Assembly: GCA_963729625.1 (NCBI GenBank)
Contig: CAVSOU010000011.1
Coordinates: forward strand, 704,001-768,000
Reading direction: 5' to 3'
DNA: 64,000 nt
Source: an uncultured bacterium
GTDB taxonomy: Bacteria > Chloroflexota > UBA5177 > JANWHV01
Shown: piece by piece, positions 4,309 to 54,575 of the stretch
Layout of the letters: the number at the start of each line of letters is the position of its first letter
Position numbering within the stretch: position 1 is the stretch's first letter
The notes under the pieces: generated by a model
The model's input: only the letters and a program-made list of their open reading frames with translations
Told to the model about the DNA's origin: nothing
The model's database searches: none
Program-made: the position numbers and the translations under genes

Positions 4309-5711
4309 GGGATCTCCGAACCGTCATCGCGCGGCACCGCCTGGATCAGGACGTGATGCAGCCCGGGCACGGCAGCGTGCAGTGCACGCTCGATATCCTC
4401 CGTCCGTTCATGTACGTTGGACATGCCGAGGTCTCCGGGAAACACTACGCGGACCACCAGGTCGAACGCCGGATCGTCGACCGGAGAACCAGCGACGGCG
4501 GGCTGACCCCCTGGGGGAAGCCGACCGTACACCTGTACGTTACGGCATGCGCCGGGAAGGAGCAGACGCTCGACGATGGTACGGACGTGATGCACGATGT
4601 CAGGATGTGCCACGGTGCTGTCGCGACGTCCGGCCAGAGTAGGCGCGAGCGCCTCGAGATGGATATTGAGCGCGCGCAGGCCAGGTATCGTGGCCAGCGC
4701 AGTCGCGTTCAGGCGTGCGACGCGTGCCTGGCCTTGAGCGAGCGAGAGGCTCGGGTCTACTTCCACATGCACATCGGCGTCGAGCGCACCATCGCCGACT
4801 TGCCGCACACGTACATCGTGGACCTGCAGGCCTTCGGCCCGCGCCAGATGCCGGATGGTGTCATCGAGGGGCTCGCCGGAGGCCGCCGCTGGTTCCATCT
4901 TCAGAACCACGTCAATCTCAGCTTCCGGCACAGATGCCCGGATGGCCGCCTCTACGGCCTCAGTTATGGCATGCGCTCCGGAGAAGGTCTCCGTGCGCTG
5001 GATTTGGATGACCAGATCCGCGAACAGCTTATTGCCGACACGGCGAAGGCGCGGCGGCGAGGCGGCAACGACGCCGGGGACCGCGCGCGCCGCGAGGGTG
5101 ATGCGGTCGACGAGCGCCTCGGGAGCCCTATCGAGCAGCGCGTCGACGGTCTCTCGGACCATCCGTCCTCCCACGAAGATGACCACGCCGCACACGCCCA
5201 GGGCGCCAACGGCGTCCGCTCGCTCCCATGCTCCCGCCCAGCCGGTCCATTGCCCGATGCGCACAGCCAGGAGGCCGAAGAGGACCACCAACGAACTCCA
5301 GATGTCAGTGCTGAAGTGCAGCGCATCGGCTTCCAGCGCCTGACTGTGCTGCATACGCGCCGCTTTGCGCAGCGACCGCGACCGCCCGATATCCGTCACG
5401 ATCGACACCGCCATTACCGCGAACGCCCATACACTGGCATCCACATATACGACCTTGTCCAGCAAGCGAGTGATCGCCTCATAGCCGACCCACACGGCCG
5501 TGAGCAACAGGAGCCCAGCCTCCAGAAAGGCGGACAGGTTCTCGACTTTGCCGTGGCCATACGGATGGGCACGGTCGGCGGGACGATCGGATAGCCGAAC
5601 CGCGAAGAGCGTCATGAGGGCCGCGACCAGGTCGAGCCCCGAATGGGCCGCCTCAGCCAGGATGCCCAGTGAGCCTGTTGCCAGTCCAACGATCAACTTG
5701 AGGACGGTCAA
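4290..5711 (-). CDS. Cation diffusion facilitator (FieF-like) with repeated C-terminal dimerisation domains
   Basis: LAEAAHSGLD, HPYGHGKVE, ADALHFSTD motifs. The likely true start is ATG 5800 after AGAGAGGG, one base out of frame (probable indel). Confidence 0.92.
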   Translation of the reverse strand: MTVLKLIVGLATGSLGILAEAAHSGLDLVAALMTLFAVRLSDRPADRAHPYGHGKVENLSAFLEAGLLLLTAVWVGYEAITRLLDKVVYVDASVWAFAVMAVSIVTDIGRSRSLRKAARMQHSQALEADALHFSTDIWSSLVVLFGLLAVRIGQWTGWAGAWERADAVGALGVCGVVIFVGGRMVRETVDALLDRAPEALVDRITLAARAVPGVVAASPPRLRRVGNKLFADLVIQIQRTETFSGAHAITEAVEAAIRASVPEAEIDVVLKMEPAAASGEPLDDTIRHLARAEGLQVHDVRVRQVGDGALDADVHVEVDPSLSLAQGQARVARLNATALATIPGLRALNIHLEALAPTLAGRRDSTVAHPDIVHHVRTIVERLLLPGACRNVQVYGRLPPGGQPAVAGSPVDDPAFDLVVRVVFPGDLGMSNVHERTEDIERALHAAVPGLHHVLIQAVPRDDGSEIPPEVAS

Positions 5712-5893
5712 TCCGAGGCCAGCCAGGACCGACGTCGCCGCGGCAACCTGCTTCGCGTGCGCTCTGGCAGTGAGAGATCCGAGATCGATTGCCGTGGCAT
5801 CCCTCTCTTGCTGGACGTATCGGCTGCAGGCCTACGGGTGCTGTGCGCCCGTCAGGCTCAGTGTAGGGGATGTCCAACCTAGCTACGTGGTTG

Positions 5894-6280
5894 CTACTTA
5901 ATAGTGAAAGGCACATACCCTCCGGCATGGTGCCCATCGTTGGCGGAGATGGTGACCCACAGGAGATTGTAGGATCCCTTTGCCAACGCGGGCACGCTGA
6001 CCGTCATCTGCATGGCGTTGGAAAACGAGACCGCGCTGTTCTGACTGTCGACCTCGCCCTTGTCGCCCGTGGCTTGGAAGACGCCGATGAAACTGCCTTG
6101 GGGGTTGACGCCCTCGACGAATGTGCAGGTAATCGTTTTTGGCGTGGCGGTCAGGTGAGCGCCGGCGGCGACGGTGCATTTCGCCAGCGTGGCGTGTGCC
6201 TGCACCACGTGGGGCAGTACGGCATATGTACCTATCACAAGCCCCAGCACCGCGAGTACACGAGTAGCGCGAGAAACCAT
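5894..6280 (-). CDS. copC: CopC-like copper-binding protein
   Basis: Signal peptide ending VQA-HATL (N-terminal His), C-terminal ISANDGHHAGG motif. Confidence 0.85.
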   Translation of the reverse strand: MVSRATRVLAVLGLVIGTYAVLPHVVQAHATLAKCTVAAGAHLTATPKTITCTFVEGVNPQGSFIGVFQATGDKGEVDSQNSAVSFSNAMQMTVSVPALAKGSYNLLWVTISANDGHHAGGYVPFTIK

Positions 6281-6616
6281 GGGAGTCCTACCTTTCAACG
6301 CAACTATCGCGTCATAGGTTTGTTGGCACCTGCCGCCGATTGCGCCACTGGTCGCATGCCTCTGCGAGGATCCGACGTCGAACGTCTCATCGAGGCTGGA
6401 GAGCATGTGTGTGTCGCACTCGGCACATAGGGCAATGTGCGCGTAGATCGGCCATTCCCCGCCGTGCGCCGCACACCTTGCGCAGCGGGCCTGACGCCCG
6501 GCAGCATCACAACGTGCACCTGGCGCGCTCTGCGAAGCGGCGATTCGTGCTCTTCAACTCCATCGTCTGTGGCTCCTTTTCTGTCTATTGAGCGCATTCG
6601 GACTCATCTGTTATCC

Positions 6617-6647
6617 ACTGTAGAGGCTGAAAATGACGATGAGGTGA
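6617..6647 (-). promoter_or_regulatory. TCAC-N7-TCAT-N10-TACAGT promoter/operator upstream of copC/CDF
   Basis: Minus strand reads TCAC ctcatcg TCAT tttcagcctc TACAGT. Confidence 0.55.
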
Positions 6648-7022
6648 TGAGGGGTAGGTTGCTACGCGAACCATTATCTAACCGTAATCTACGCACATCG
6701 GGTTCATCTTGCGCCACAGTCGGATCTCTGCCTGGAATGCGGGGCGACACAGGAGCTGCCGGCTATCGAGATAGAGGATCTGCGAGCACGCCTGCACAAT
6801 CGATACGGCTTTGAGGCGTGTATCGAACACTACGCTATCTCAGGTCACGGCAGCGCACGGTTCGGTCGCCTAACTGCGTCTGACAATCGTGGTGAGCAAC
6901 GCTGAAATCGTGCGGTCGCGCGGACGCCAGGTGTCCGGCGTGATCCCGCTCATATGGGGCGTAGTGACGCTCGAGCAGGGGCTGCGTATGACCGTCGGAC
7001 AGGCCAAACCGCTGGTGAGCGC

Positions 7023-7394
7023 TCACACCCCGCCCGGTGCGGCGAGCTGGGGACTGCTACCGCTCGCGGCGTTGGCGTTTGCACGCTCCCTGACCGAGGC
7101 GGATGAGGTGGCGGCGCGAAGACGCTGAGGAAGCCTATCCCGCAGCGCGTCGCGAGCCGTCAGGATCAGCACGAGAACCGTTGACGTGTCGGCGCGAAGC
7201 TGCCGCACAAGCTCCAGCACGTCAACGCCCGGCAGCATGACATCGACGATCAGTGCGTCATGGTCTTGAGTCTGCGCCATATCCAGACCGTCGTTTCCAT
7301 CATAGACCACATCGACGGTGTGCCGCTGGTGCATGAGGCCGCGCCCCAGGAGATTGGCGACCGCCATGTCATCCTCTACCAGCAGGGCGCGCAT
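7023..7394 (-). pseudogene. OmpR-type response regulator, receiver only, truncated at ~7130
   Basis: MRALLVEDD...DVMLPGVD...LILTARDALRDR then unrelated sequence; no GADDYL.KPF or winged helix. Confidence 0.85.
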
Positions 7395-7418
7395 AGAGGA
7401 CCTTCAATCTCTTGACCG

Positions 7419-7460
7419 AGAATAGCGAAGCGACATGATGATCACATGGCAGTATGGTGA
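7419..7460 (-). promoter_or_regulatory. TCAC-N7-CCAT-N7-TCAT-N10-TATTCT promoter/operator of the response regulator
   Basis: Same spacing as the other four sites; consistent with autoregulation. Confidence 0.55.
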
Positions 7461-7506
7461 TTCTTCCGGAGCAGCGAGATCACACTGTGGTCAAAGACAA
7501 ATCAAA

Positions 7507-8856
7507 TCAAGTGCGCGGCAGAGTCACGGTGAACCTAGCCCCGTTGGGACTGACGTTCGCCGCCCTGATATGTCCGCCATGTGCCTCGGCAATCCAGCGG
7601 CCGATGGCGAGTCCCAGCCCGCCGCCGGACATCGTGCGTTCTCGACCACCCCGATAGAAGCGGTCAAACAGGTGAGGCAGGTCCTTGGGGTCGATGCCGG
7701 GACCGGAATCCTGGACCTCCAGCGCTGCACGGCTTCCATGCACCGTCACACTCACGCTGATCGTGCCGCCGTCGGGCGTATGCTTGAGTGCGTTGTCCAA
7801 CAGAATCAGGACAAGCTGGCGGAGGCGAACCCAATCGCCGCGCATCGCCACGCTCGGAGGCGCCTGCGCGGTCAGGCGCACATCGCGCTCGGCCGCCAGC
7901 AGCTCGATGCCAGAGACGGCATCGCGCACCGTCGACGCCAGGTCCATCTGCTGCCGCTCGAGACTGAGCACGCCGCTATCCGCATGGGCAAGTAGGGAGA
8001 GGTCGTCGACCAGGCGCGCCAGGTGCACACTCTCGGCCAGCGCTTGCTCCAGGGCCGACTGCTGCTCCCCGGGATCACCGCTTTCCAGGCCGAGCTCGGC
8101 AGCGGTACGCACGATCGCCACCGGTGTCCGAAGCTCGTGCGCGGCATCGGCGACGAAGTCGCGTTGGCGTCGTAGTGAGCGGCGGATGGGACGCATAGCC
8201 CGTCCCACGACGATGAGGGTGATGATCACGGCGGCGGCGACGCCGACGAGGCTGGCGATCAGGACGTCGCGCAGGATCGTGCGCACACTCTCGTCGTACT
8301 GGTGGAGCGACACGCCCAGCTGGGCGACTCCCAAGGTCCTGGCGCCCTCCTGGAGCGGTATCGTGTAGATGAGGTAGCGATCGTTTGGCGGACCGCTGAT
8401 AGTGGAATATGTCCGCGTGTGGTCGATGAGGACGTGTTTCGCCGCACCGGGATCGGGCACTCGCCCGTTGAAGACGCTGACGCTGCCACCCTGCACGCTG
8501 AGCCCGGCATCGACGACGACCAGGAACACGCCACCGGACGTCAACTCGGATTCGGCAGTCGTGCGAATGACCTCGCTTGGGTCGCCGCCGTCGCTGCCGT
8601 CGCTCCCCGCATTCTCGGAGTCGATAAGTACCTTCACGTCGGCGTCGGCATGCGAGCGCAGGGTATCGCGGAGGGACTGCTCCATCGCCGAGCTGGTCGT
8701 CACGTAGACAACGGCCAGGATGGCGACGACCAGGACGACCAGCGACGCCGTGGTAATCAGGGCCAGCCGGCGCGCCACGCCCCGCACGACCCGCTGGTCG
8801 GGTTCTGAGCCGCTGCGCTGAGACCAGCGGTGTGGTTGGTCGGTGGGATTCGACAT
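7507..8856 (-). CDS. Membrane sensor histidine kinase (HisKA + HATPase_c)
   Basis: Two TM helices; DAAHELRTP H-box; LDNALKH, DSGPGI, FDRFYR, GGGLGLAI boxes. Confidence 0.95.
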   Translation of the reverse strand: MSNPTDQPHRWSQRSGSEPDQRVVRGVARRLALITTASLVVLVVAILAVVYVTTSSAMEQSLRDTLRSHADADVKVLIDSENAGSDGSDGGDPSEVIRTTAESELTSGGVFLVVVDAGLSVQGGSVSVFNGRVPDPGAAKHVLIDHTRTYSTISGPPNDRYLIYTIPLQEGARTLGVAQLGVSLHQYDESVRTILRDVLIASLVGVAAAVIITLIVVGRAMRPIRRSLRRQRDFVADAAHELRTPVAIVRTAAELGLESGDPGEQQSALEQALAESVHLARLVDDLSLLAHADSGVLSLERQQMDLASTVRDAVSGIELLAAERDVRLTAQAPPSVAMRGDWVRLRQLVLILLDNALKHTPDGGTISVSVTVHGSRAALEVQDSGPGIDPKDLPHLFDRFYRGGRERTMSGGGLGLAIGRWIAEAHGGHIRAANVSPNGARFTVTLPRT

Positions 8857-44280: not shown

Positions 44281-45762
44281 CTACGCTCTGACGACAACCG
44301 TATTGCTTACCTTGTCGTGCCAGCCTTGTCGTCGCCGGTCCCAGAGTAGCCAGAGCATACTCGGCAATAGCGCCAGGCTCAACACAAGCCCGAGGAGACG
44401 GGCGAAGGACGCACCAGGGCCGACTTTCGCGCCGTCTGCCCGCACGAGCCGCAAGCCCATTGCCCGGTAGCCGAGTGTCTGGCCATGCCAAGCCCAGCAC
44501 GGCACGAAATACAGCGCAGGACTGACCAGCAGCAGCAATCCGACGGGCGTGCTGAGGGATGGCGCCGCCTCAACCAGGCCACCGCCGAGAAGGAAGCATC
44601 CCAGCAGGATCGTGACGTCAACCAGAAAAGCGCCCAGCCGTGGCCCCACCGGTGCCAGCATGAGCTGGTCCGGTGGCAAGGCGCGGGAGAGCTGATCTTG
44701 GGTGTACCCGCTGGAATGCCATAGCTCGACAACCGCGGGCGGCCGAGACGGTATCGTCTTCGACGTGTCGGACCTGGCTACCGGCGATAACCCTGTCGAC
44801 GGCTGCTCCGTCGCGGCTTGGCCGGCGAGAGCGGCGTCAAAAGCCGCGACGGTAAGGAAGCGCTCTTCGATGGACAGACTGAGCGCGCGCTGCAGCGCAG
44901 CAGCGACGTCCGCACTGGTCGTCGGCACCAGGGTGCGCACATCGGGGAAGACAAATGGGGGGAAGGCTGCAGGATCGCGTCCTGTCAACAGGTGGTGCAT
45001 GGTCGCCGCCAGCGCATATTCGTCAGAACGCGCCTCTGCCAATCCCTGATACTGTTCCGGCGGCGCATAGCCGCCGGTGCCGATAGCGGTACCGCCTGCA
45101 GCGCTCCTCCGTCGGGCAATTCCGAAATCAATCAGCGTCAACCTGCCGTCCGGGCGCAGCATGATGTTCTGCGGTTTCAGGTCGCGGAAAATGACGGGCG
45201 GGGTCTGGCTGTGAAGATAGGTCAGTGCTCCAGTGAGGACGGCGGCCCATGACAGCACCTGTGCTTCAGGCAGGCCGGGGTCGCCGCGCTGCGCCAGCTC
45301 AGCTGCCAAGTTGTGGCCTTCGATATACTCCATGACCAGGAAACGCGCGCTGCCTTCCGAGACGACATCGCGGATATCGCAAATCGCGGGGTGCTGCAGC
45401 TGCGCAAGTACCTCGACCTCGCGCGCGAACATGGCCATGGCTTCCTGTGCCTCGGCCGGATCGGCGCTATGCAAGAGAATGGTCTTGATCGCGCACGGCC
45501 GCCCCTGGAGCTTCTCATCCGAGGCGCGCCATACCGCGCCCATGGCGCCTGAGGCGATAGGCGCCTCGACGCGATAGCGACCGCCGACGAGTTCGCCGCT
45601 GTGCAGCACGGGCGCGTCGAATGCAGCAGCATTCGTCGGCGCCGCTGCTCCCACGTTCTGCCGTGCAGGGCTCTCGACGCGCGCGCCACAATTCGGGCAA
45701 TAAACGGTCCCAACCACCACAGGTTGCGAGCATGCAGGGCACACGGTCTCGGCCACGCGCAT
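44281..45762 (-). CDS. Zinc-ribbon - Ser/Thr protein kinase - RDD membrane domain protein
   Basis: CPAC/CPNC; SGAMGAVW, AIK, FRDLKPQN, DFG, GYAPPEQ; RLGAFLVD...GQTLGY...GWHDKVSNTVVV (RDD). Confidence 0.93.
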   Translation of the reverse strand: MRVAETVCPACSQPVVVGTVYCPNCGARVESPARQNVGAAAPTNAAAFDAPVLHSGELVGGRYRVEAPIASGAMGAVWRASDEKLQGRPCAIKTILLHSADPAEAQEAMAMFAREVEVLAQLQHPAICDIRDVVSEGSARFLVMEYIEGHNLAAELAQRGDPGLPEAQVLSWAAVLTGALTYLHSQTPPVIFRDLKPQNIMLRPDGRLTLIDFGIARRRSAAGGTAIGTGGYAPPEQYQGLAEARSDEYALAATMHHLLTGRDPAAFPPFVFPDVRTLVPTTSADVAAALQRALSLSIEERFLTVAAFDAALAGQAATEQPSTGLSPVARSDTSKTIPSRPPAVVELWHSSGYTQDQLSRALPPDQLMLAPVGPRLGAFLVDVTILLGCFLLGGGLVEAAPSLSTPVGLLLLVSPALYFVPCWAWHGQTLGYRAMGLRLVRADGAKVGPGASFARLLGLVLSLALLPSMLWLLWDRRRQGWHDKVSNTVVVRA

Positions 45763-45855
45763 TCCTCCGGTTTCGGCTCAGGTATATGATGCTGCAGCCG
45801 CTTGCACGAAAGCGACGTCCGCTCCCCACGGCACCAAACAGGCCGAGCTACTGCC

Positions 45856-45871
45856 GATAAGCTGCAGCGCT
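45856..45871. repeat. 16-bp direct repeat GATAAGCTGCAGCGCT, copy 2
   Basis: Identical to 44186-44201. Confidence 0.75.
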
Positions 45872-46177
45872 TCGGTTGCAGGTGATCCAGCACGTGCCCG
45901 TCATGCTGGCCCGCATCCCACTGGACTTGTCGCGCGAGTTACAAACTACGATACAACCTCAGCGGCTAATGCGCCGCGAGCAGTATCCGTTCGGACGCCG
46001 CCGGCAGCAGGCGGCGGGCGCCCGATGCGTGGCCTGGGCTCGACGCGCGAATGTGATGGCTGTGGGCGCCATCGCCGCTCCCTTACCTCCACGCGCACCA
46101 ATGACCTTCGCCAGGGCGTCTGCCGCGAGCGCGCCGCCGGCACGATTGTCGGTGGAGATAGTCGTTCCACATGAACT

Positions 46178-49100
46178 TCACGGCACATTCGCGCATGCCT
46201 TGCGGTATGGCAGGTCACCGAGGTACTCCTTCCATTCCTGGGCCGTTAGGTTGCGATTGGCGATCGCACAGGCACGTTGTGCCAGGGACGTGGGCCCGAT
46301 GGACCACAGCCGGAGAGGCGCGTCGGACACCCCGGCAGTGCCCGCGGCCAGCAGCCGGCCGTCCGGACTGAAGGCAAGGCTCGTGACCTTATCCCCGTGC
46401 CCGGCCAGAGCCGGGCCGAGTGTCTGCCCGGTCGCCAGGTCCCACAGGTGGATCGTGCCGTCGTCGCCACCGGACGCCAGGGTCTGGCCGTCGGGACTGA
46501 AGGCCACGCTGTACAGCGGGCTGGTGCTCGTGGTGAGGGGCAGACCCAGCGCTCGCCGGTGCCCCACATCCCACAGTCGGACCGCACAGTCGGCGGAGGC
46601 CAGGATCCGGCCATCCGGGCTGAATGCCAGGCTGTTCACCGGGCCGGTGCACCCCGTAAGCGGCCGACCGAGCAGCTGCCGCGTTGCCACACGCCACAGG
46701 CGTATGGTCCCGTCCTGGCCGCCGGAAGCCAGTGTCTGACCGTCCGGACTGAAGGCTACGCTCAGCACGGCACCTGCGTGCCCGGCGAGCGGCGGCCCGA
46801 TCGCTTGCCCGCGTACCGCATCCCACAGCCGGACGTTGCCGTCTCCGCCGCCGGTGGCCTCGATCCTGCCATCGGCACTGTATGCGGCGCTGCTGACGTC
46901 GTACAGTGCGTGGGCTGAGCCGATCGGCCGGCCGTTCCGCACGTCCCACCGGAGGAAGTTCGCGCCCCCGGCGGCCGGATCGGCGCCGGTAGCGGCCAGG
47001 GTGTTGCCGCCGGGACTGAAAGCCAAGCTCAACACTGATCCTGCGTCCCCGGCCAGGGGTGGACCGACCGGTTGGCCAGTCGTCACGCTCCACAAGCGAA
47101 CGGTCGCGTCAGCGCCGCCCGCCGCCAGGGTTGTGCCGTCTGGGCTGAAGGCCTCGCTACTGACCTGACCGACTGGCCCGGCAAGCACCCGGCTGAGGGC
47201 GCCGGCGCCCGTGGCGTCCCAGAGGCGCACCGTGCCGTCATCGCCGGTGGACACGAGCGTTTGGCCGTCGGGGCTGAAGGCGAGACCGTTCACCGGGCCG
47301 GTATGGCCGGTGAGGGGCGGATTGACCGGTTGCCAGGTCGCCGCGTTCCAGAGCCGGATAATCCCAACCTCGCCGCTCGCAGCGAGGAGCGTACCGTCCG
47401 GACTGAAGGCCACGGCATACACCGGGCCGGAGCCCGCGACGAGCACCTGGCGGGATAATCGCCGGCTCACCATATCCCACCGCAGGATCGCGCCCCCCTC
47501 GCTGCCGGCGGCGAGCGTGCGGCCGTCGGGACTGAAGGCCAGGCTTTGCGCGACGAACGTGGTCGCGCCGCGCAAGGGCGCCAAGAGCCTGTGCCGCGCC
47601 ACGTCCCACAGCGCGATAGTGCCGCCTTCGCCGCACGTAGCCAGGATCGTGCCGTCGGGGCTGAAGGCCACGGCATTCACGTACCAGAGCCCCGCGTGCA
47701 GCGGCGTGGCGAGCGCCCGGCGGCCCGCCGCGTCCCAGAGCTGGATCGTGCCGGAACCGTCGCCCGCCGCGAGAATCTTGCCATCCGGGCTGAAGGCCAC
47801 GCTGTTGACGGAACTGCGCTGTCCCGCCGGCAATGTCGCCAGCAGCCGCCGGCTCGCCACATTCCAGAGTTGTACCGTGCCATCGCTGCTCGCGGCGGCA
47901 AGCACCGTGCCGTCCGGGCTGAAGGCGAGGCTGCTCACCGCATCGGTATGGCCGGTGAGCGGCGGGCCGATGGCCTGGCGTTGTGCCAAGTCCCACAGCC
48001 GTACCGTACCGTCTTCGCTGCCGGAGGCGATAATCCCTCCCCTGGGGCTGAAGGCTAGGCTGCGCACGGGGCCGGCCTGCGCCGCGAGAAATGCCAGCAG
48101 GCGCGGATTGTAGTCGATGGCGCGGATCAAGCCGGCATGGGTTTGCGCCGAGCCGTTCAATCGGTCGGCTTCCGTGCTCAGCAGCAGCGCGACCTGCAGG
48201 TTGCTGCCCAGCAACGTGCCGGCCCGCAAATCCAGGTCGCGCACCAGCTCGGCGACCGCCGCATCGCGGGCGGCCACCGCGCGTGTCCGTTCATTCGAAG
48301 CCACCGAGGCGTTGGTGAGGGCCACGATGCCCAAGGCCGCGGCGACCAGCAGGAAGAGGGCCAGCACCGCGGCGAGCAGGCGCAGCCGCGTGCCCGCCAG
48401 GCGCGCGAGCCCCAACTCGCGCGCCTGCCGCGCTTGCTCCCCCGCCGCCTGTTCGTGCTCCGCCCTCTCGGCCGCCGTGAGGAAGGCATGCTCCTCGGCA
48501 CTCGGCGTGTTCCGCGCCGCCCAGGCCCGTGCCTCTACCAGGACGGTGCCGCGATAGAGATGGTCGCTGGGCTGGCCACGCCGGGCCCAGACGGCGGCGT
48601 CGGCGCTGATCGTCTGCTGCAGGCGCACGTCTTCCCGCGCCTCGTGCAGCCAGCCCGACAGCCGCGGCCACTCGCGAATCAGCGCCTCGTGACTGACCTC
48701 CACGCGGCTGGTGCCGCCCTGCTCGCTCGCGGTCAGCAGCCGCGCCAGCACGAAGGCGTCTGCCACCTCGCGCATCAGCGCAGTCTGCCCGGTGTCGGAC
48801 AGGATCAGCTCGCTCACTGCCGCTCGCCGGCGGGTCGTGTCCTGCTCGGTGGCGCCCGGGTCGATCAGCCGCAGGAAAAGCGCCCGCGCCAGATGTCGAT
48901 GATCGTCGGTGGGCAGCGCGGTGTAGGTCGCCTCGGCCTGCCGGCTCATCGCGCCGCGCACGCCGCCCAGCTCCTCGTAGGCGGCCACGGTCAGGGTCGT
49001 TCCCTGGCGGCGCGCGACGAGCTGCTCGAGGGTGAACTCGAGCAGGGGCAGCGCCCCCGCCTGGCCTGCCACCTCTAAAGCAGATCGCCCACCAGGCTGG

Positions 49101-50567
49101 GCTCGAAGCGAGACTGCACGTCGGGCAGGGCAGCAGGCCGCTCGACGGCCTCCCGCAGCTCGGCCACGCTCATCGGCACCACGACCTTGCCGTGCGTCTC
49201 CAGCAGGGCCGCGAGACCGGGATAGGCCAGTGGCCGGTCATAGAAGTCGGCACGCAGGGTGAGGATGGCTAGCAGCGGGCCGCGCGGCTCGCCGACCGCC
49301 GTGAGCAGGAGGTCGATGAATTGCCGGCGTTCCTCCTCATCCGTGGTGAGCGTGAACAGCTCCTCGAGCTGGTCGACCACCAGCACCACCCGCTGGTCGG
49401 GATGAGGGGCCAGTTGCCGCGCCCAGAGGTGCAGGCCACGGGCGTCCTCGGCGCCGAGGTCCTCCCGCAGGGCATGGATGCTGCGCTCACCCTTGCCTGC
49501 CAGGGCCACGGCCAGGGCCTCCAGGGGCCGGGCGCCGGGGAGGACCGGATCGAGGTAGACCCAGCTCTCGCTGCCGGGCAGGGCGCCCGCCTTGAGGCGC
49601 GGGAGGAGCCCGGCGCGCACCAGGCTGGACTTGCCCGAGCCGCTCGGTCCCACCACGGCCAGCAGGCGGGCCGGCGCGGCCTGCGCCGTAGCCAGGATGG
49701 ACGCAACCGCCTCCACCAGCGTCTGCACGAAGGCGGCCCGCCCGAAGAAGTCGCCCGCGTCCTCCTCGCCGAACGCGCGCAGGCCCTTGTACGGGTTGCG
49801 TGGCGCCACCGGCGCGGCCGGTGCGCGCAACGGATTCCTCCAGGCAGGGAGAGTGGCGCGCCTATCGCGGCGACGATGGCGGCGATTGCCTCGGCATAGC
49901 GCGCCCCGCGGGCATCCACGTAGGGCACGCTGGCCAGTCCCACCGGCACACAGTCCTGCCACTCCTCCCCCGCCGACCAGATTGGCACGATGGGGCGGCC
50001 GTACATCTCGGCCAGGCTGAGCTCCCTGAGGACCCAGCGCGATGAGCGGGTAGCGGGCGACGCCACCAGCAGCACAGCCCGGCAGGCGCGCATGGCCGTC
50101 CGCATCGCTTCCGGCCGGCCCGCCCCGGATTGCGGCTGAGAGTGCTCCGACCAGCCTGCGACACCGTTCGCGGCGAGGTCAGCCTGCAGCCGCGCCACAA
50201 AGTCGCCGTCCTCCACCGCATGCGAGAGGACTGCGGAGGGCGTGTCCGCCCCCTTGTGCACGTGCTGGGCGAGCGGCGGCTGGGCCTCGTCGCCGAAGCG
50301 CTCCCACAGTTCCGGCGCGGCTGTAGTCGTCTCCTGCCAGGTACGGGCAGCGGCGAGAAGACGGTCGCCGTCGGCGGCCGGCAGGCCGAGGGCTTTGGCG
50401 AGCCGGTGTACCGTGTCGGGATAGGGGCGGTGCGCGCCCTGCTCCAGGTACTTGAGCGCGCGCGTGCTCAGCTCCGCCCGCTCAGCCAACTCCTCCTGCG
50501 TCAGGTTGGCGGCGCGTCGATACCCCCGAAGGAGCGCTCCAAATACCTGCGCCTGTGTGCCCGCCAT
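46178..50567 (-). CDS. XRE-HTH - TIR - STAND (nSTAND1-like) NTPase - TM - 14x WD40 protein, interrupted by two frameshifts (~49830, ~49075)
   Basis: FGALLRGYRRAANLTQEELAERA; AVLSHAVEDGDFVARLQADL...SSRWVLRELSLA; NPYKGLRAF, GPSGSGKSS, VVDQLEELF, LRADFY; GALPLLEF; HEALIREWPRL; TM helix; 14 AFSPDG-type repeats. Stitched by hand from three ORFs. Confidence 0.88.
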
Positions 50568-50887
50568 CTTCTCGCGCCGTCGCGCCTTCCCCGGTCGCGC
50601 GTTCGCACCGCTTTCCGTCGCTTTCTGCGCACCATCATAGCACAGCCGTCTCACTACTTTTCCCCTAACTTTGCCCGTGCTTTGCCTGGTGTGACGCGCG
50701 CGCAGGGTGCACGCTAGCGGTGTTGATACTCGTGCATCGAGGCCGATCCGATCGGCGTTTCCGGCTACCGGCACGGGGGCATATCGCGATAGTTCGTGCA
50801 GGAGGGGACCGTGCCGATCGTCCCGGCAAACCAGGAGGTCATCGATCAAACGAGCACCCGATGGGACTGAAACAGAAGGAGACGGGA

Positions 50888-51580
50888 ATGAAACGCACTT
50901 GGAAGGTGGTAGCAGTTCTGGCGGTCGCGCTCGCCCTCGCCGCGACTGGACCCATGCGGGCCGCCGAGGCGGGGAGTTCGCAGCCCCATGTGTTCTCGCC
51001 CCAGTTGCGCCCCTACGGTCACTCGTACAGCGAATGGGAAGTCCGGCTCGACCAGTGGCAATTCGCCATACCCGCATCGGAGAACCCCGGTTTGGTCCAT
51101 ACCGGTGCGCACTGCGCCGAGGGTCAGTCCGGCCCGGTCTGGTACCTCATCGCGCCCATGTACGCCACCGATACCCAGACCTGCACGGTGCCTGCCGGCA
51201 AGGCGTTCCTCATTAGTCCGGCTGGCTGGGAGTGTTCGACGGCTGAAGGAGGCGGCGACACCTCTGCGGCACTGCGTGACTGCGCCAGGAAGGACCAGGA
51301 TACGGTGACAATAGCCAACGTCACAATAGATGGGGTGCACCTCACGAACCTGCTCACCCGCTATCGGTTCGTTACCCCCCTGTTCACCTTCAAGTATCCT
51401 GCTGACAACATGCTGCAGCAGGTGCCTGGGCCTGGCACCACCGCGTCGGTCGGTGACGGCATCGTCGTCATGCTGGCTCCGCTGGCCGCGGGACATCACA
51501 CGCTCGAAATGGGCTCCCGGTCTGTCGCTCCTCACTCGATGGCTGGAGGAGTCACCTACCACCTGACGGTTAGCCGCTGA
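50888..51580 (+). CDS. Secreted 4-Cys protein of unknown function, array copy 1 (intact)
   Basis: AAGGAG RBS; signal peptide; PYGHSYSEW...TGAHCAEGQSGPVWYL...TCTVPAGKA...LAPLAAGHHTL...YHLTV. Confidence 0.88.
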   Translation: MKRTWKVVAVLAVALALAATGPMRAAEAGSSQPHVFSPQLRPYGHSYSEWEVRLDQWQFAIPASENPGLVHTGAHCAEGQSGPVWYLIAPMYATDTQTCTVPAGKAFLISPAGWECSTAEGGGDTSAALRDCARKDQDTVTIANVTIDGVHLTNLLTRYRFVTPLFTFKYPADNMLQQVPGPGTTASVGDGIVVMLAPLAAGHHTLEMGSRSVAPHSMAGGVTYHLTVSR

Positions 51581-51771
51581 TCGGCGTGTTCCTGGCGGCA
51601 CCCGCCGACTGCCTCAGGGCCTGCTGCATGACAGGCCCTAACATGCCAGGCAGAAACCGGCCAGTGCAGACAGCGTTCGGGTTGCATCATGATGAGAAGA
51701 CCGTGAAACGCATGAAGAAGCTGGGAGCGGTACTGGTGGCCATGCTCACTGTCGTGACCCTGGGATCGGCA

Positions 51772-51914
51772 TGCGACACCGTTCGCGGCGAGGTCAGCCT
51801 GCAGCCGCGCCACAAAGTCGCCGTCCTCCACTGCATGCGAGAGGACGGCGGAGGGCGTGTCCGCCCCCTTGTGCACGTGCTGGGCGAGCGGCGGCTGGGC
51901 CTCATCGCCGAAGC
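51772..51914 (-). repeat. 143-bp copy of the linker/TIR-start region of the NLR-like gene (50157-50299)
   Basis: Colinear, same orientation, 3 mismatches by eye. Confidence 0.9.
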
Positions 51915-51962
51915 CATCAAGCAAGCCGGCACACGTGCGGGCTGAAACTGAAGGAGATGGAA

Positions 51963-52638
51963 ATGAAAAGCACATGGAGGGTGGTAGCAGTTCTGGCGGT
52001 CGCGCTCAGCCCTCGTCGCAATGGGACCCATGCGGGCCGTCGAGGCGGGGAGTCCGCAGCTTCATGTGTTCTCGCCCCAGTCACGCCCCTACGGCCACAC
52101 GTACAGCGAATGGGCCGTACGGTGGTGGCAGTGGGATCTCGCCATACCTTCTACGAGTAACCCTCTGACCGATGACTCCGGTGCGCATTGCGCCATAGGA
52201 CAGTCCGGTCCCGTCTGGTACCTCAGCGGGACGGCCGCCGGCGGCACCGATTGTGCGGACCTGCACGGTGCCTTCCGGCAAGGCACTACTCATCTTGGCG
52301 GCGGGCTCAGAGTGTTCGACCGTGGAAGGAGCTGGCGACACCTTTGAGGCACTACGTGCCTGCACCAGGAAGTACACCGATGAGAGTGACAGAGAGCTGA
52401 CATCACGGCGGATGGTGTTGACATTTCACACCTGCTCACACGTTACCGGTTCGCGACCTCCATGTTCACCTTTGCATATCCCAAGGACTTCATCTGTGAG
52501 GCAAGCACCTGCGCCGGCGGTGGGACATCGTATATGCTTGCTCCGCTAGCGGCGGGACAGCGCGCAATCGAGTGCGCGGCGGTCTGGCCTCCCGCTCGAT
52601 GGCGGGACAGTAAGATCCATCTGACGATTGGCCGCTGA
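51963..52638 (+). pseudogene. Secreted 4-Cys protein, array copy 2 (frameshifted)
   Basis: Pieces in different frames (MKSTWRVVAVL; PYGHTYSEWAVRWWQW; RTCTVPSGKA); degraded 3' end. Confidence 0.75.
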
Positions 52639-52771
52639 GCAGCGCCAGCGGCGCGCCGTGGTGCCGCTGCAACGGCCTGCATGCAGAAGGCCAAAAAAGA
52701 AAGAGAGTGAAACGCATGAAGGGAGAGGACGAGAAAAGAAAAAGAGGTGAGACAGGGATAGGCACCGAAAT

Positions 52772-52893
52772 CGTTCGCGGCGAGGTCAGCCTGCAGCTGC
52801 AAAAAGCGTCTGCACGCATGCGAGAGGACGGCGGAGGCGTGTCGCCCCCGTGCACGTGCTGGGCGAGCGGCGTCAGGGCGTGATCGGCGAAGC
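52772..52893 (-). repeat. Second, degenerate copy of the TIR-start region
   Basis: cgttcgcggcgaggtcagcctgcagc...gcatgcgagaggacggcggagg...gtgcacgtgctgggcgagcggcg. Confidence 0.8.
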
Positions 52894-52937
52894 TAAGAAG
52901 CCGGTATATGTGCGGGCTGAACTGTAAGGAGAAAGAT

Positions 52938-53642
52938 ATGACAGCACATGGAGGAAGCTAGCAGCGTTGCTGGCAGTCATGCTCGCCATCCTCGCAATGG
53001 GACCGGCGCCTGCCGCCGCGCGCGGCAAGCCGCACCGATTCACGTCTTCCCGCCCCAGGCACGCCCGTACGGCCACACGTACAGCGAATGGGCCGTACGG
53101 TACTGGCAGTGGGATCTGGCCATACCCGTCTACGCAGTAACCCTCTGACTCGATAACTTCGGTGCACACTGCGCCGTAGGACCAGTCCGGTCCCGGTCTG
53201 GTACCTCAGCGGGACGGCCGCCGGCGGCACCATTGTGCGGACCTGCACGGTGCCTTCCGGCAAGGCACTACTCATCTTGGCGGCGGGCTCAGAGTGTTCG
53301 ACCGTGGAAGGAGCTGGCGACACCTTTGAGGCACTACGTGCCTGCGCCAGGAAGTACACCGATGGAGTGACAGAAGCTGACATCACGGCGGATGGTGTTG
53401 ACATTTCACACCTGCTCACACGTTACCGGTTCGCGACCTCCATGTTCACCTTTGCATATCCCAAGGACTTCATCTTTGGCAAGGTCCCTGCGCCCGGGAC
53501 GAGCAAATCGGTGGCTGACATCATGTTCATCATGCTTGCTCCGCTGGCGGCGGGACAGCACGCAATCGAGGTGCGCGGCCGGTCTGGCCCTCCCGCTGCG
53601 ATGGCCTGGGACATTAAGTACCATCTGACGATTGGCCGCTGA
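52938..53642 (+). pseudogene. Secreted 4-Cys protein, array copy 3 (5' frameshifted, 3' intact)
   Basis: 5' end resembles copy 4 with indels; 53235-53642 is a clean frame, nearly identical to copy 2 over about 52200-52495. Confidence 0.75.
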
Positions 53643-53778
53643 GCAGCGCCAGCCCGGCGCTGCGCACAAAATGTCCCGGTGCCTCGCTGCACGGCCTGCC
53701 GATGCAGGGCCCTGGCGCGGGTCAGGACGCGATCGGCGAAGCTAGCCGGTATTCGGGCTGAACTGTATGGAGAAAGCC

Positions 53779-54498
53779 ATGACACACATGAGGAAGCTCG
53801 CAGCCTTGCTCGCAGTCATGCTCGCCATCCTCGCCTTGGGACCGGCGCCTGCCGCCCGCGCGGCAAGCGCACCGCTTCATGTCTTTCCGCCCCAAGCGCG
53901 CCCCTATGGTCACACGTACACGGAATGGGAAATCCGATTCTGGCAGTGGTTGAATGCGATACCTGTGCCGCAGAACCCCTGGCTGGATAGCACTGGCGCG
54001 CACTGCGCGGTAGGCCAGTCCGGCCCGGCCTGGTACCTCCTCGACAACCTGGGCGTCGCCCATCCCGTTGTCCGCACCTGCACGGTACCGGCCGGCACAG
54101 CGCTGTTCGTCGCGCCGGGCATCGAGGGGTGTGCCACCGCGAATGGGGACGGCGATAGCTACGAGGCATTGCGCAAATGCACCGAAGGTTATGCCGCTAC
54201 GGCGACAGGAGCTGACGTTACGGTGGATGGGATTCACATCCCGAACGTGTTCACCCGCTACTTCTTCATGACCCCCCTCTTCACCTTCAAGTATCCCGCT
54301 CACAGCCTGCTGGACTATCCGAGTGCCTTGGGTCCCAGCGATGTGCCTGCGCCTGGGCCTGGGATCACCAAGTCAGTGGGTGGCGGCAACTTCGTCATGC
54401 TGGCGCCGCTTGCAGCGGGGCGGCACACGCTTGACCTGCGCGCCTGGGGTAGCTCGTGGGCCATAGAAACCACGTACCATCTGACGATCGGCCGCTGA
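53779..54498 (+). CDS. Secreted 4-Cys protein, array copy 4 (intact)
   Basis: GGAGA RBS; signal peptide; same scaffold motifs as copy 1. Confidence 0.88.
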   Translation: MTHMRKLAALLAVMLAILALGPAPAARAASAPLHVFPPQARPYGHTYTEWEIRFWQWLNAIPVPQNPWLDSTGAHCAVGQSGPAWYLLDNLGVAHPVVRTCTVPAGTALFVAPGIEGCATANGDGDSYEALRKCTEGYAATATGADVTVDGIHIPNVFTRYFFMTPLFTFKYPAHSLLDYPSALGPSDVPAPGPGITKSVGGGNFVMLAPLAAGRHTLDLRAWGSSWAIETTYHLTIGR

Positions 54499-54528: not shown

Positions 54529-54575
54529 GCCCTAGGACCCGCTGCACCGGTGGCCGATGAAGCGGGTCCTAGGGC
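54529..54575. terminator. Inverted repeat between convergent genes
   Basis: GCCCTAGGACCCGCT...AGCGGGTCCTAGGGC 15-bp arms. Confidence 0.6.

Follow-up and report, generated by a model that had tools for sequence, protein, structure and literature searches.

An NLR-like gene on the minus strand (46178-50567) of a 64,000-nucleotide stretch of DNA from an uncultured Chloroflexota bacterium, hereafter the window, stands back to back with a tandem array of genes for secreted proteins. We favour, with moderate confidence, the reading that this gene encodes a surface-sensing TIR-nSTAND1 membrane receptor, that the divergent secreted genes are outputs or accessories controlled by its helix-turn-helix (HTH) domain, and that this particular copy is decaying. 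The well-supported part of this reading is the layout of the receptor itself, which its sequence predicts to be a single-pass membrane protein with the HTH, TIR and nucleoside triphosphatase (NTPase) domains inside the cell and a WD40 sensor outside. Linkage between receptor and secreted genes is non-random within the genus. We infer that the receptor senses a ligand, that its TIR domain is active and that its HTH domain controls the divergent genes.

Domain architecture and predicted topology of the receptor

The receptor is one gene lying in three reading-frame pieces, which are held by minus-strand open reading frames (ORFs) at 49269-50567 (frame A), 49075-49962 and 46178-49072. Pfam profiles and a repeat count place an XRE-family HTH, a TIR domain, a STAND domain, a transmembrane (TM) helix and 14 WD40 repeats in this order, at the coordinates that a preliminary description of the window had given them. 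The HTH starts at residue 9 and scores 51.3 bits against HTH_31 (cutoff 27), with a second score of 36.0 bits (cutoff 23) in the HTH_31/HTH_3 comparison that defines XRE-family regulators; DNA binding by this domain is a prediction. The TIR domain matches TIR_2 at 54.9 bits (cutoff 28). nSTAND1 (PF20703) is matched over the full length of the profile in two pieces, positions 1-215 at 208.7 bits and positions 220-378 at 158.8 bits, both above the curated cutoff of 27.1, and piece 2 of the receptor carries a Walker A P-loop (GPSGSGKS, within VVGPSGSGKSS of ORF 49075-49962). The WD40 array of piece 3 reaches 414.9 bits, and its 14 cores, which follow one another with a 43-residue period, are enough for two seven-bladed propellers.

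We compared the TIR domain with solved structures. A profile built from ten paralogue TIR domains matches AbTIR, PdTIR, Roq1 and SARM1, with AbTIR as the best hit (E 8e-6); the corresponding single-sequence search gave the HTH match only. In the profile alignment, the glutamate of the receptor's RELS, which the preliminary description had singled out within WVLRELSLA (codon 50022-50024), coincides with the glutamate of 'nyEL' in the NAD+ hydrolase AbTIR, a position that we take to be the catalytic residue. It is kept in eight of the ten paralogue TIR domains.

The TM helix of the receptor, RLRLLAAVLALFLLVAAALGIVALT, comprises 23 hydrophobic residues at about residues 230-252 of piece 3 (about 48317-48385). 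We examined its conservation in the 120 best homologues of an intact paralogue from the same genome (P0067), calling a helix where a 19-mer had a Kyte-Doolittle score of at least 2.0. A strongly hydrophobic helix directly follows the NTPase in 113 of the 120, a count to be read knowing that the query region included the helix, so that the hit list favours close relatives sharing it. The mean uncharged span of the helix is 26 residues. Lysine and arginine residues within the 15 flanking positions average 4.35 on the N-terminal side versus 1.96 on the C-terminal side, and the N-terminal side is the richer one in 102 of the 113 proteins. By computational measures, the conserved helix and this positive-inside bias assign the receptor to single-pass proteins with the N-terminus inside and the C-terminus outside, which agrees with the orientation proposed earlier. 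Ten representatives were scanned for the domains flanking the helix: helix-bearing members have FGE-sulfatase, beta-helix/NosD or WD40 domains after it and trypsin, kinase or TIR domains before it, while P0119, P0147 and P0158, three of the seven members without the helix, end in PAS-HisKA-HATPase or GAF. Together, the helix in the family, the charge bias and the types of domain beyond the helix indicate that an outside-facing sensor is a family trait.

Two further features of these proteins deserve mention. The last ~35 residues of the receptor (window 46178-46290) form a tail of the pattern RAC.IANRNLT..EW..YLG..PY..C, in which C935 is invariant and C960 is at least 90% conserved among 27 homologues; the two cysteines may form a disulphide, which would fit an outside location. 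The fusion of a histidine-kinase output or sensor to TIR-STAND in P0119, P0147 and P0158 is unusual in itself.

The family is large. With the intact paralogue as query, 2918 proteins score at E <= 1e-10 among 8000 candidates, and many of them combine HTH, TIR, nSTAND1 and WD40, the named examples being from Chloroflexota, including Dictyobacter. The architecture of the receptor is not new: it belongs to a large, mostly Chloroflexota TIR-nSTAND1 family. The preliminary description had not recognised the combination, which turns out to be common in public Chloroflexota proteins. The clade nSTAND1 was named by Kaur et al. (2021, PMC8195603) among STAND proteins of predicted counter-invader systems. 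Our literature searches turned up no description of a TM-anchored nSTAND1 protein or of a receptor/secreted pairing, and supplementary domain tables may already list TM forms.

Linkage of the receptor to a secreted protein family

We surveyed the secreted family in the order to which the source genome (G000) belongs and found it in two of the five genomes examined, the source genome and a sister genome (G004). Secreted paralogues occur at seven loci of the source genome. At three of them they are divergent from a receptor, with gaps of 320 bp in the window, where the intergenic region has the length reported earlier, 349 bp at C11:374470/374821 and about 650 bp at C11:515962/515312. At a fourth, on contig C17, the paralogue lies ~1 kb downstream of a receptor; two others are orphans (C7:192688 and C11:205654), and the last, on C9, is a remnant near a receptor. 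Five receptors of this genome (C10, C14, C11:31920, C8 and C10:984338) have no secreted neighbour. Given 10-11 nSTAND1 loci and 7 secreted loci in 5.41 Mb, and taking adjacency as lying within 1.5 kb, four adjacencies would arise by chance with a probability of about 3e-8 to 5e-8 if independent, and of about 6e-4 to 8e-4 when they are counted as two independent events.

The sister genome contains a divergent pair (C10:1050020/1050525), a downstream copy (C12:68035) and a four-copy secreted array 8 kb from a receptor. Receptor phylogeny follows these arrangements: the divergent one is found in four of the five members of a single clade (Shimodaira-Hasegawa-like approximate likelihood-ratio support 98), and the downstream one marks another clade in both genomes. 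For one receptor/secreted pair, the receptor tree and the secreted-protein tree both place the counterpart from the sister genome as its closest sister (support 82 and 93). No third gene was found in common to three or more of the seven paired loci. The coupling of the secreted genes to the receptor is specific to the genus. It has outlived both duplication and speciation, and HTH control from the shared divergent region would be consistent with it. Elsewhere in the sister genome, on C16, a secreted paralogue (L054 8959-9645, plus strand) lies ~900 bp divergent from an 826-aa gene product with HTH, P-loop STAND and TPR parts (5575-8055, minus strand); since this HTH-STAND-TPR family has at least 15 copies per genome, the pairing with a different STAND type is plausibly due to chance.

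The secreted protein itself matches no family in Pfam, NCBIfam or PADLOC, and its neighbours in the protein atlas are unnamed clusters. A word-index search returned only 66 relatives; a profile search of 1.84 billion cluster representatives returned 9205 at E <= 0.001 and 2642 at E <= 1e-30, P0187-P0332 among them. Nine of the 19 long relatives scanned combine the domain with immunoglobulin (Ig), HYR, Big_7, DUF5122, phytase-like, GDSL, FIMAH, dockerin or type IX secretion tail modules, and these fusions to extracellular modules indicate that the secreted domain is itself an extracellular module. In one 2717-aa surface protein it occurs in up to six tandem copies. The AlphaFold2 model of copy 4 is confident (pLDDT 91.7, pTM 0.84). 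Its best Foldseek match, to chagasin-like inhibitors, has E 2.5e-4 and TMq 0.23, and its best VIA-align Z is 6.0; the modelled fold appears to be a generic sandwich of the Ig or fibronectin type III kind only. The secreted protein consists of one such domain and belongs to a large family of extracellular modules that lacks a Pfam model. Its genes have branch lengths of 0.17-0.31, versus 0.08-0.12 for the NTPase, and ratios of non-synonymous to synonymous substitution rates (dN/dS) of 0.31-0.52, compared with 0.37 for WD40 and 0.20 for nSTAND1.

Proposed history of the secreted array and probable decay of the receptor copy

The array consists of four head-to-tail units of ~1 kb each (Table 1). 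The preliminary description had counted three to four secreted paralogues with four cysteines; four units are indeed present, two of them (copies 1 and 4) intact genes whose products have a Sec-type signal peptide and four cysteines, the other two (copies 2 and 3) pseudogenes. At least six indels break the frame of copy 2, including a 19-nt deletion, and four break that of copy 3. Both receptor fragments within the array correspond to receptor positions 50149-50307, the second being the more diverged, and each abuts the final ~50 bp of sequence preceding a secreted gene. The presence of receptor 5' fragments between the copies indicates that the array grew by duplicating a unit that included the receptor 5' end. 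In the simplest history that we can infer, the receptor 5' end, the control region and a secreted gene would have been duplicated in tandem, a 527-bp deletion would then have taken out most of the control region together with the HTH-coding part, and the shortened unit would have been duplicated once more. An intact counterpart of the locus lies at G000:C11:370080-375507.

Table 1. Coordinates of the features discussed, in window positions
Feature	Position	Strand	Remarks
Receptor piece 1	49857..50567	-	XRE HTH and TIR; Pfam HTH_31, TIR_2
XRE HTH	~50367-50543	-	in receptor piece 1
TIR	~49878-50228	-	in receptor piece 1
Receptor piece 2	49078..49856	-	N-terminal half of nSTAND1, second frame
Receptor piece 3	46178..49072	-	C-terminal half of nSTAND1, TM helix, stalk, 14 WD40, tail with Cys pair
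Frameshift 1	49826..49860	-	+1 nt near 49856, in the variable TIR-to-nSTAND1 linker
Frameshift 2	49075..49080	-	1 nt missing at 49076; window CTGCTTTA-GAGGTG versus paralogues CTGCTCTACGAGGTG
Divergent intergenic region	50568..50887	.	320 bp, presumed shared control region
Secreted copy 1 (P0001)	50888..51580	+	intact, 230 aa
Receptor 5' fragment	51764..51922	-	between copies 1 and 2; equivalent to 50149-50307; repeats D8 (96% identity) and D10
Secreted copy 2	51963..52637	+	pseudogene; first in-frame stop at codon 66
Second receptor 5' fragment	52766..52901	-	between copies 2 and 3; repeats D10, D14 and D15, 82-96% identity
Secreted copy 3	52938..53642	+	pseudogene; 5' third broken, 135 codons open at the 3' end
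Secreted copy 4 (P0002)	53779..54498	+	intact, 239 aa
Inverted repeat I1, 22 nt	54529..54575	.	directly after the array, 91% complementary
Zn-ribbon / Ser-Thr kinase / RDD membrane protein	44281..45762	-	493 aa; Pfam

Alignment of the receptor to two paralogues, the intact P0067 (G000:C11:370080-374471, 1463 aa) and one on C10, reveals two 1-nt frameshifts that deprive it of an uninterrupted reading frame; the deletion at 49076 (TA-GAG against TACGAG) yields a TAG stop, and both sites lie outside long homopolymers. Identity of the window receptor to the C10 paralogue is 94-99% from the end of the TIR domain through the NTPase (window 48400-50000 against G000:C10:43000-44800) but drops to 65-80% in the HTH and WD40 parts. 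Such a mosaic suggests recent gene conversion or duplication between the paralogues. Each of the two genes also has private 1-nt indels. Across the NTPase, dN/dS between the two is 0.18 (24 synonymous and 12 non-synonymous changes over 750 nt) and 0.16, no higher than in older comparisons (0.20-0.22). Since these values show no relaxed selection on the NTPase, the breaks either arose very recently or are errors introduced in a repeat that is difficult to polish. Among the ten nSTAND1 loci of the source genome, six have open frames of 1355-1537 aa and four are interrupted; a sister receptor contains, within its nSTAND1 domain, a 1.57-kb insert encoding an IS3-family transposase (337 bits; G000:C11:517506-519079). 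The housekeeping genes surrounding the window locus are open. With two frameshifts and two dead array copies, the window copy of the receptor is probably inactive or recently inactivated.

Alternatively, the two frameshifts would have been introduced during assembly or polishing of two nearly identical paralogues, and the window receptor would be intact and active, an explanation that we consider possible and on balance doubtful. It draws on the position of both indels within the stretch shared with the C10 paralogue, where read mapping is ambiguous, on the low dN/dS just given, and on the likeness of the genome to a draft or metagenome bin (21 contigs, 87% complete, 5% contamination). Yet both indels lie outside long homopolymers, and six other ~4.5-kb paralogues are open, as are the nearby housekeeping genes; the neighbouring array copies carry the 19-nt deletion and about ten further indels, and the IS3 element in the sister paralogue points to real decay under way in the receptor family. 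Among public reads, one DNA run contained 21% of the sampled words, and no RNA run was listed. These reads gave contigs of depth 2-3 that span only pieces of the array, with sites 49076 and 49856 outside their coverage; one such contig, with 9 mismatched letters and a 1-nt gap relative to secreted copy 2, may derive from another copy or strain. Taken together, real decay of the receptor is roughly twice as plausible as assembly error.

Several smaller features accompany the array. At 51697-51780 on the plus strand, a stray fragment resembles the start of a further paralogue, with signal-peptide-like VKRMKKLGAVLVAMLTVVTLGSAC and a lipobox-like end, and overlaps the opposite-strand receptor fragment. 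A loosely conserved block, GGCxCxGGxGCA...GATGG..TAGxAxAGGAGG, recurs among four divergent regions (window 50740-50835), 100-150 nt upstream of the secreted genes. Inverted repeat I1 may be a terminator stem, though it has no T tract and was not called by the terminator scan, which found 3 terminator-like sites against 4.5 expected. Neither an Rfam family nor a tRNA was found at the locus, and the Rfam negative covers 50568-50887.

On the far side of the receptor, 415 bp downstream, lies the gene for the kinase-RDD protein (Pkinase 116.5 bits, RDD 81.1 bits). The preliminary description had listed it with the candidate system, downstream. The gene is present as described; we rejected it as a partner because it is near none of the other nSTAND1 loci of the source genome nor any of seven loci in the sister genome, and it is probably an incidental neighbour.

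Proposed function and comparison with known systems

We propose the following mode of action. A ligand outside the cell would cluster the receptors, and the nSTAND1 modules would oligomerise. Oligomerisation would gather the TIR domains, leading to NAD+ cleavage or signal production, and could alter the action of the DNA-bound HTH at the divergent promoter, in the manner of a ToxR-type membrane-tethered regulator equipped with a STAND switch. The divergent genes, co-duplicated with the receptor and kept beside it in the genus, would most likely be HTH-controlled outputs or extracellular accessories.

Several observations weigh against this proposal. Within the 320-bp divergent region no sigma-70 promoter consensus was found, and the alignment of five divergent intergenic regions gave no conserved operator and no clear palindrome. 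The catalytic-position glutamate is replaced by aspartate in the sister-genome receptor with the divergent pair, and by valine in one paralogue. The dN/dS of the secreted genes corresponds to no gene-wide positive selection, a value of 1.0 being reached in one recent tandem pair of the sister genome only, and the NTPase of the window receptor shows no relaxed selection relative to the C10 paralogue. Three of the seven secreted loci in the source genome have no intact secreted gene beside a receptor, and most adjacencies within the genus can stem from one or two ancestral juxtapositions and are not independent. Outside the genus, none of nine genome loci of the secreted family has an nSTAND1, TIR or WD40 neighbour (126 of 132 ORFs scanned, the six at the locus ends having been dropped), and none of 80 metagenome loci is paired, only 21 of these being 5 kb or longer. 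Four of the unpaired loci are 6.5 kb or longer and encode proteins of about 50% identity. Co-occurrence of the secreted family with STAND-WD40 genes, for which the preliminary description had suggested a neighbourhood survey, holds within the genus and fails outside it. As far as these sequences go, the pairing does not seem independent enough for receptor and secreted gene to be called a system.

One locus outside the genus carries a further gene of note. In a Verrucomicrobiia bin (L014), a TPR_10/TPR_12 protein cut by the contig end (110-919, plus strand) lies immediately upstream of a distant member of the secreted family. Arrays of TPR_10/12 often end STAND proteins.

Receptor and secreted genes might be neighbours by descent only, a one-off juxtaposition in a variable region that was copied as a block and has no joint function. 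We regard this as rather unlikely, and it accounts for a good deal of the distribution: the divergent arrangement is limited to one receptor clade, pairing is absent from all 9 genome and all 80 metagenome loci outside the genus, the source genome has two orphan secreted genes and five receptors that stand alone, and the tree of the secreted proteins is mostly unresolved. The region is also prone to recombination, as the receptor fragments between the copies and the mosaic with the C10 paralogue attest. Mere descent fits less well with an adjacency that outlasted one speciation and no fewer than three duplications, over which the secreted proteins came to share just 50-60% identity, with the second arrangement, downstream and convergent, that both genomes keep in a different receptor clade, or with the further secreted gene of the sister genome that is divergent from a different HTH-STAND-TPR gene.

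The secreted paralogues might, instead of being outputs or accessories, be ligands, decoys or co-receptors that bind the WD40 propellers, forming a self/non-self or guard-type pair. The predicted location of both sensor and secreted protein outside the membrane would allow such contact, WD40 and the secreted genes outpace nSTAND1 in dN/dS, and Ig-like sandwiches are common binding modules. We nevertheless think it improbable: save for one orthologous pair, the secreted copies are not clade-matched to the receptors, and in other genomes the family includes many receptors that lack a secreted neighbour. Similarly low is the credence we give to a broader conjecture, in which Chloroflexota would use a large class of surface receptors that are hybrids of Toll-like receptors (TLRs) and NLRs, each with TIR and STAND switch inside, one membrane pass and a variable sensor outside, and in this genus one subclade would be coupled to a fast-evolving secreted Ig-like ligand or decoy, or HTH-controlled output, for non-self or kin recognition through NAD+ signalling. 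That the hydrophobic segment is no membrane anchor and the whole receptor is cytoplasmic like classical NLRs is very improbable, for although the receptor lacks a signal peptide, WD40 propellers are classically cytoplasmic, and four of the seven relatives below the helix threshold are without a shown PAS/HisKA or GAF part (three of them carrying WD40 by precomputed Pfam annotation), the long uncharged span, the helix scores across the homologues and the strong positive-inside bias all speak for a membrane anchor, as does the correlation between the presence of the helix and the type of domain after it.

We thus return to the reading of a surface-sensing receptor with HTH-controlled neighbours. 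The usual view of NLR-like STAND proteins in bacteria is that they sense phage proteins in the cytoplasm. If the predicted topology is true, these receptors survey the cell surface or the environment and not the cytoplasm, which would be relevant to filamentous, multicellular bacteria and would, by analogy, combine TLR-type and NLR-type logic. The genus-specific coupling offers a tractable candidate ligand or output, and the secreted domain, large as a family and without a Pfam model, is worth cataloguing.

Among known systems, the nSTAND1 clade (PF20703, PMC8195603) is the nearest, sharing the N-terminal TIR effector, the central NTPase, the C-terminal repeat sensor and genome-expanded paralogues. 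The window receptor differs from it in being frameshifted and in having an additional XRE HTH and a TM helix that would externalise the sensor, neither of which is mentioned in the parts of that paper describing the clade. Sensors of the STAND/CLec type, diversified by diversity-generating retroelements in multicellular bacteria, join nSTAND1 or NACHT to TIR or peptidase effectors and variable C-terminal sensors (Dore et al. 2024, PMC10907252), and the same source predicts a periplasmic location for one NACHT-CLec target. Compared with the systems as described there, the window locus has no reverse transcriptase or template repeat, its sensor is WD40, and its neighbour is a secreted Ig-like protein.

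The TIR profile match and the aligned glutamate link the receptor to TIR NADases (AbTIR/PdTIR, Thoeris ThsB) and to the plant TIR-NLR Roq1. Unlike Thoeris, the window receptor has no ThsA or other partner nearby, and no SIR2/SLOG gene was found among the neighbours of the locus; the ThsB_TIR profile gives 17.4 bits, below its cutoff of 21.2, and the PADLOC ThsB models match part of the domain at E 5e-6 and 7e-5. The intact paralogue P0067 matches no system model among the antiphage STAND systems of PADLOC-DB 2.0 (Avs, bNACHT and others), its hits being at the level of domains (WD40-like, HTH, ThsB-like TIR and two P-loop snippets).

Pairs of an NLR and an adjacent partner include fungal NWD2/HET-S and bacterial amyloid-motif pairs, and the window locus resembles them in keeping an NLR-like gene beside a small partner gene. 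It differs from amyloid-motif pairs in that the N-terminus of the NLR and the partner have no motif in common: with its HTH starting at residue 9, the receptor has no space for one, and the partner starts with a signal peptide. Regulators of the ToxR/CadC type are membrane-tethered one-component regulators, and Toll-like receptors have repeats outside and a TIR domain inside. As predicted, the window receptor would share with the former a single-pass layout with an outside sensor and an inside DNA-binding domain, and with the latter the outside repeats and the inside TIR. We claim no homology with ToxR or with TLR ectodomains. The receptor is set apart by WD40 repeats in place of leucine-rich ones and by a STAND NTPase switch placed between effector and membrane.

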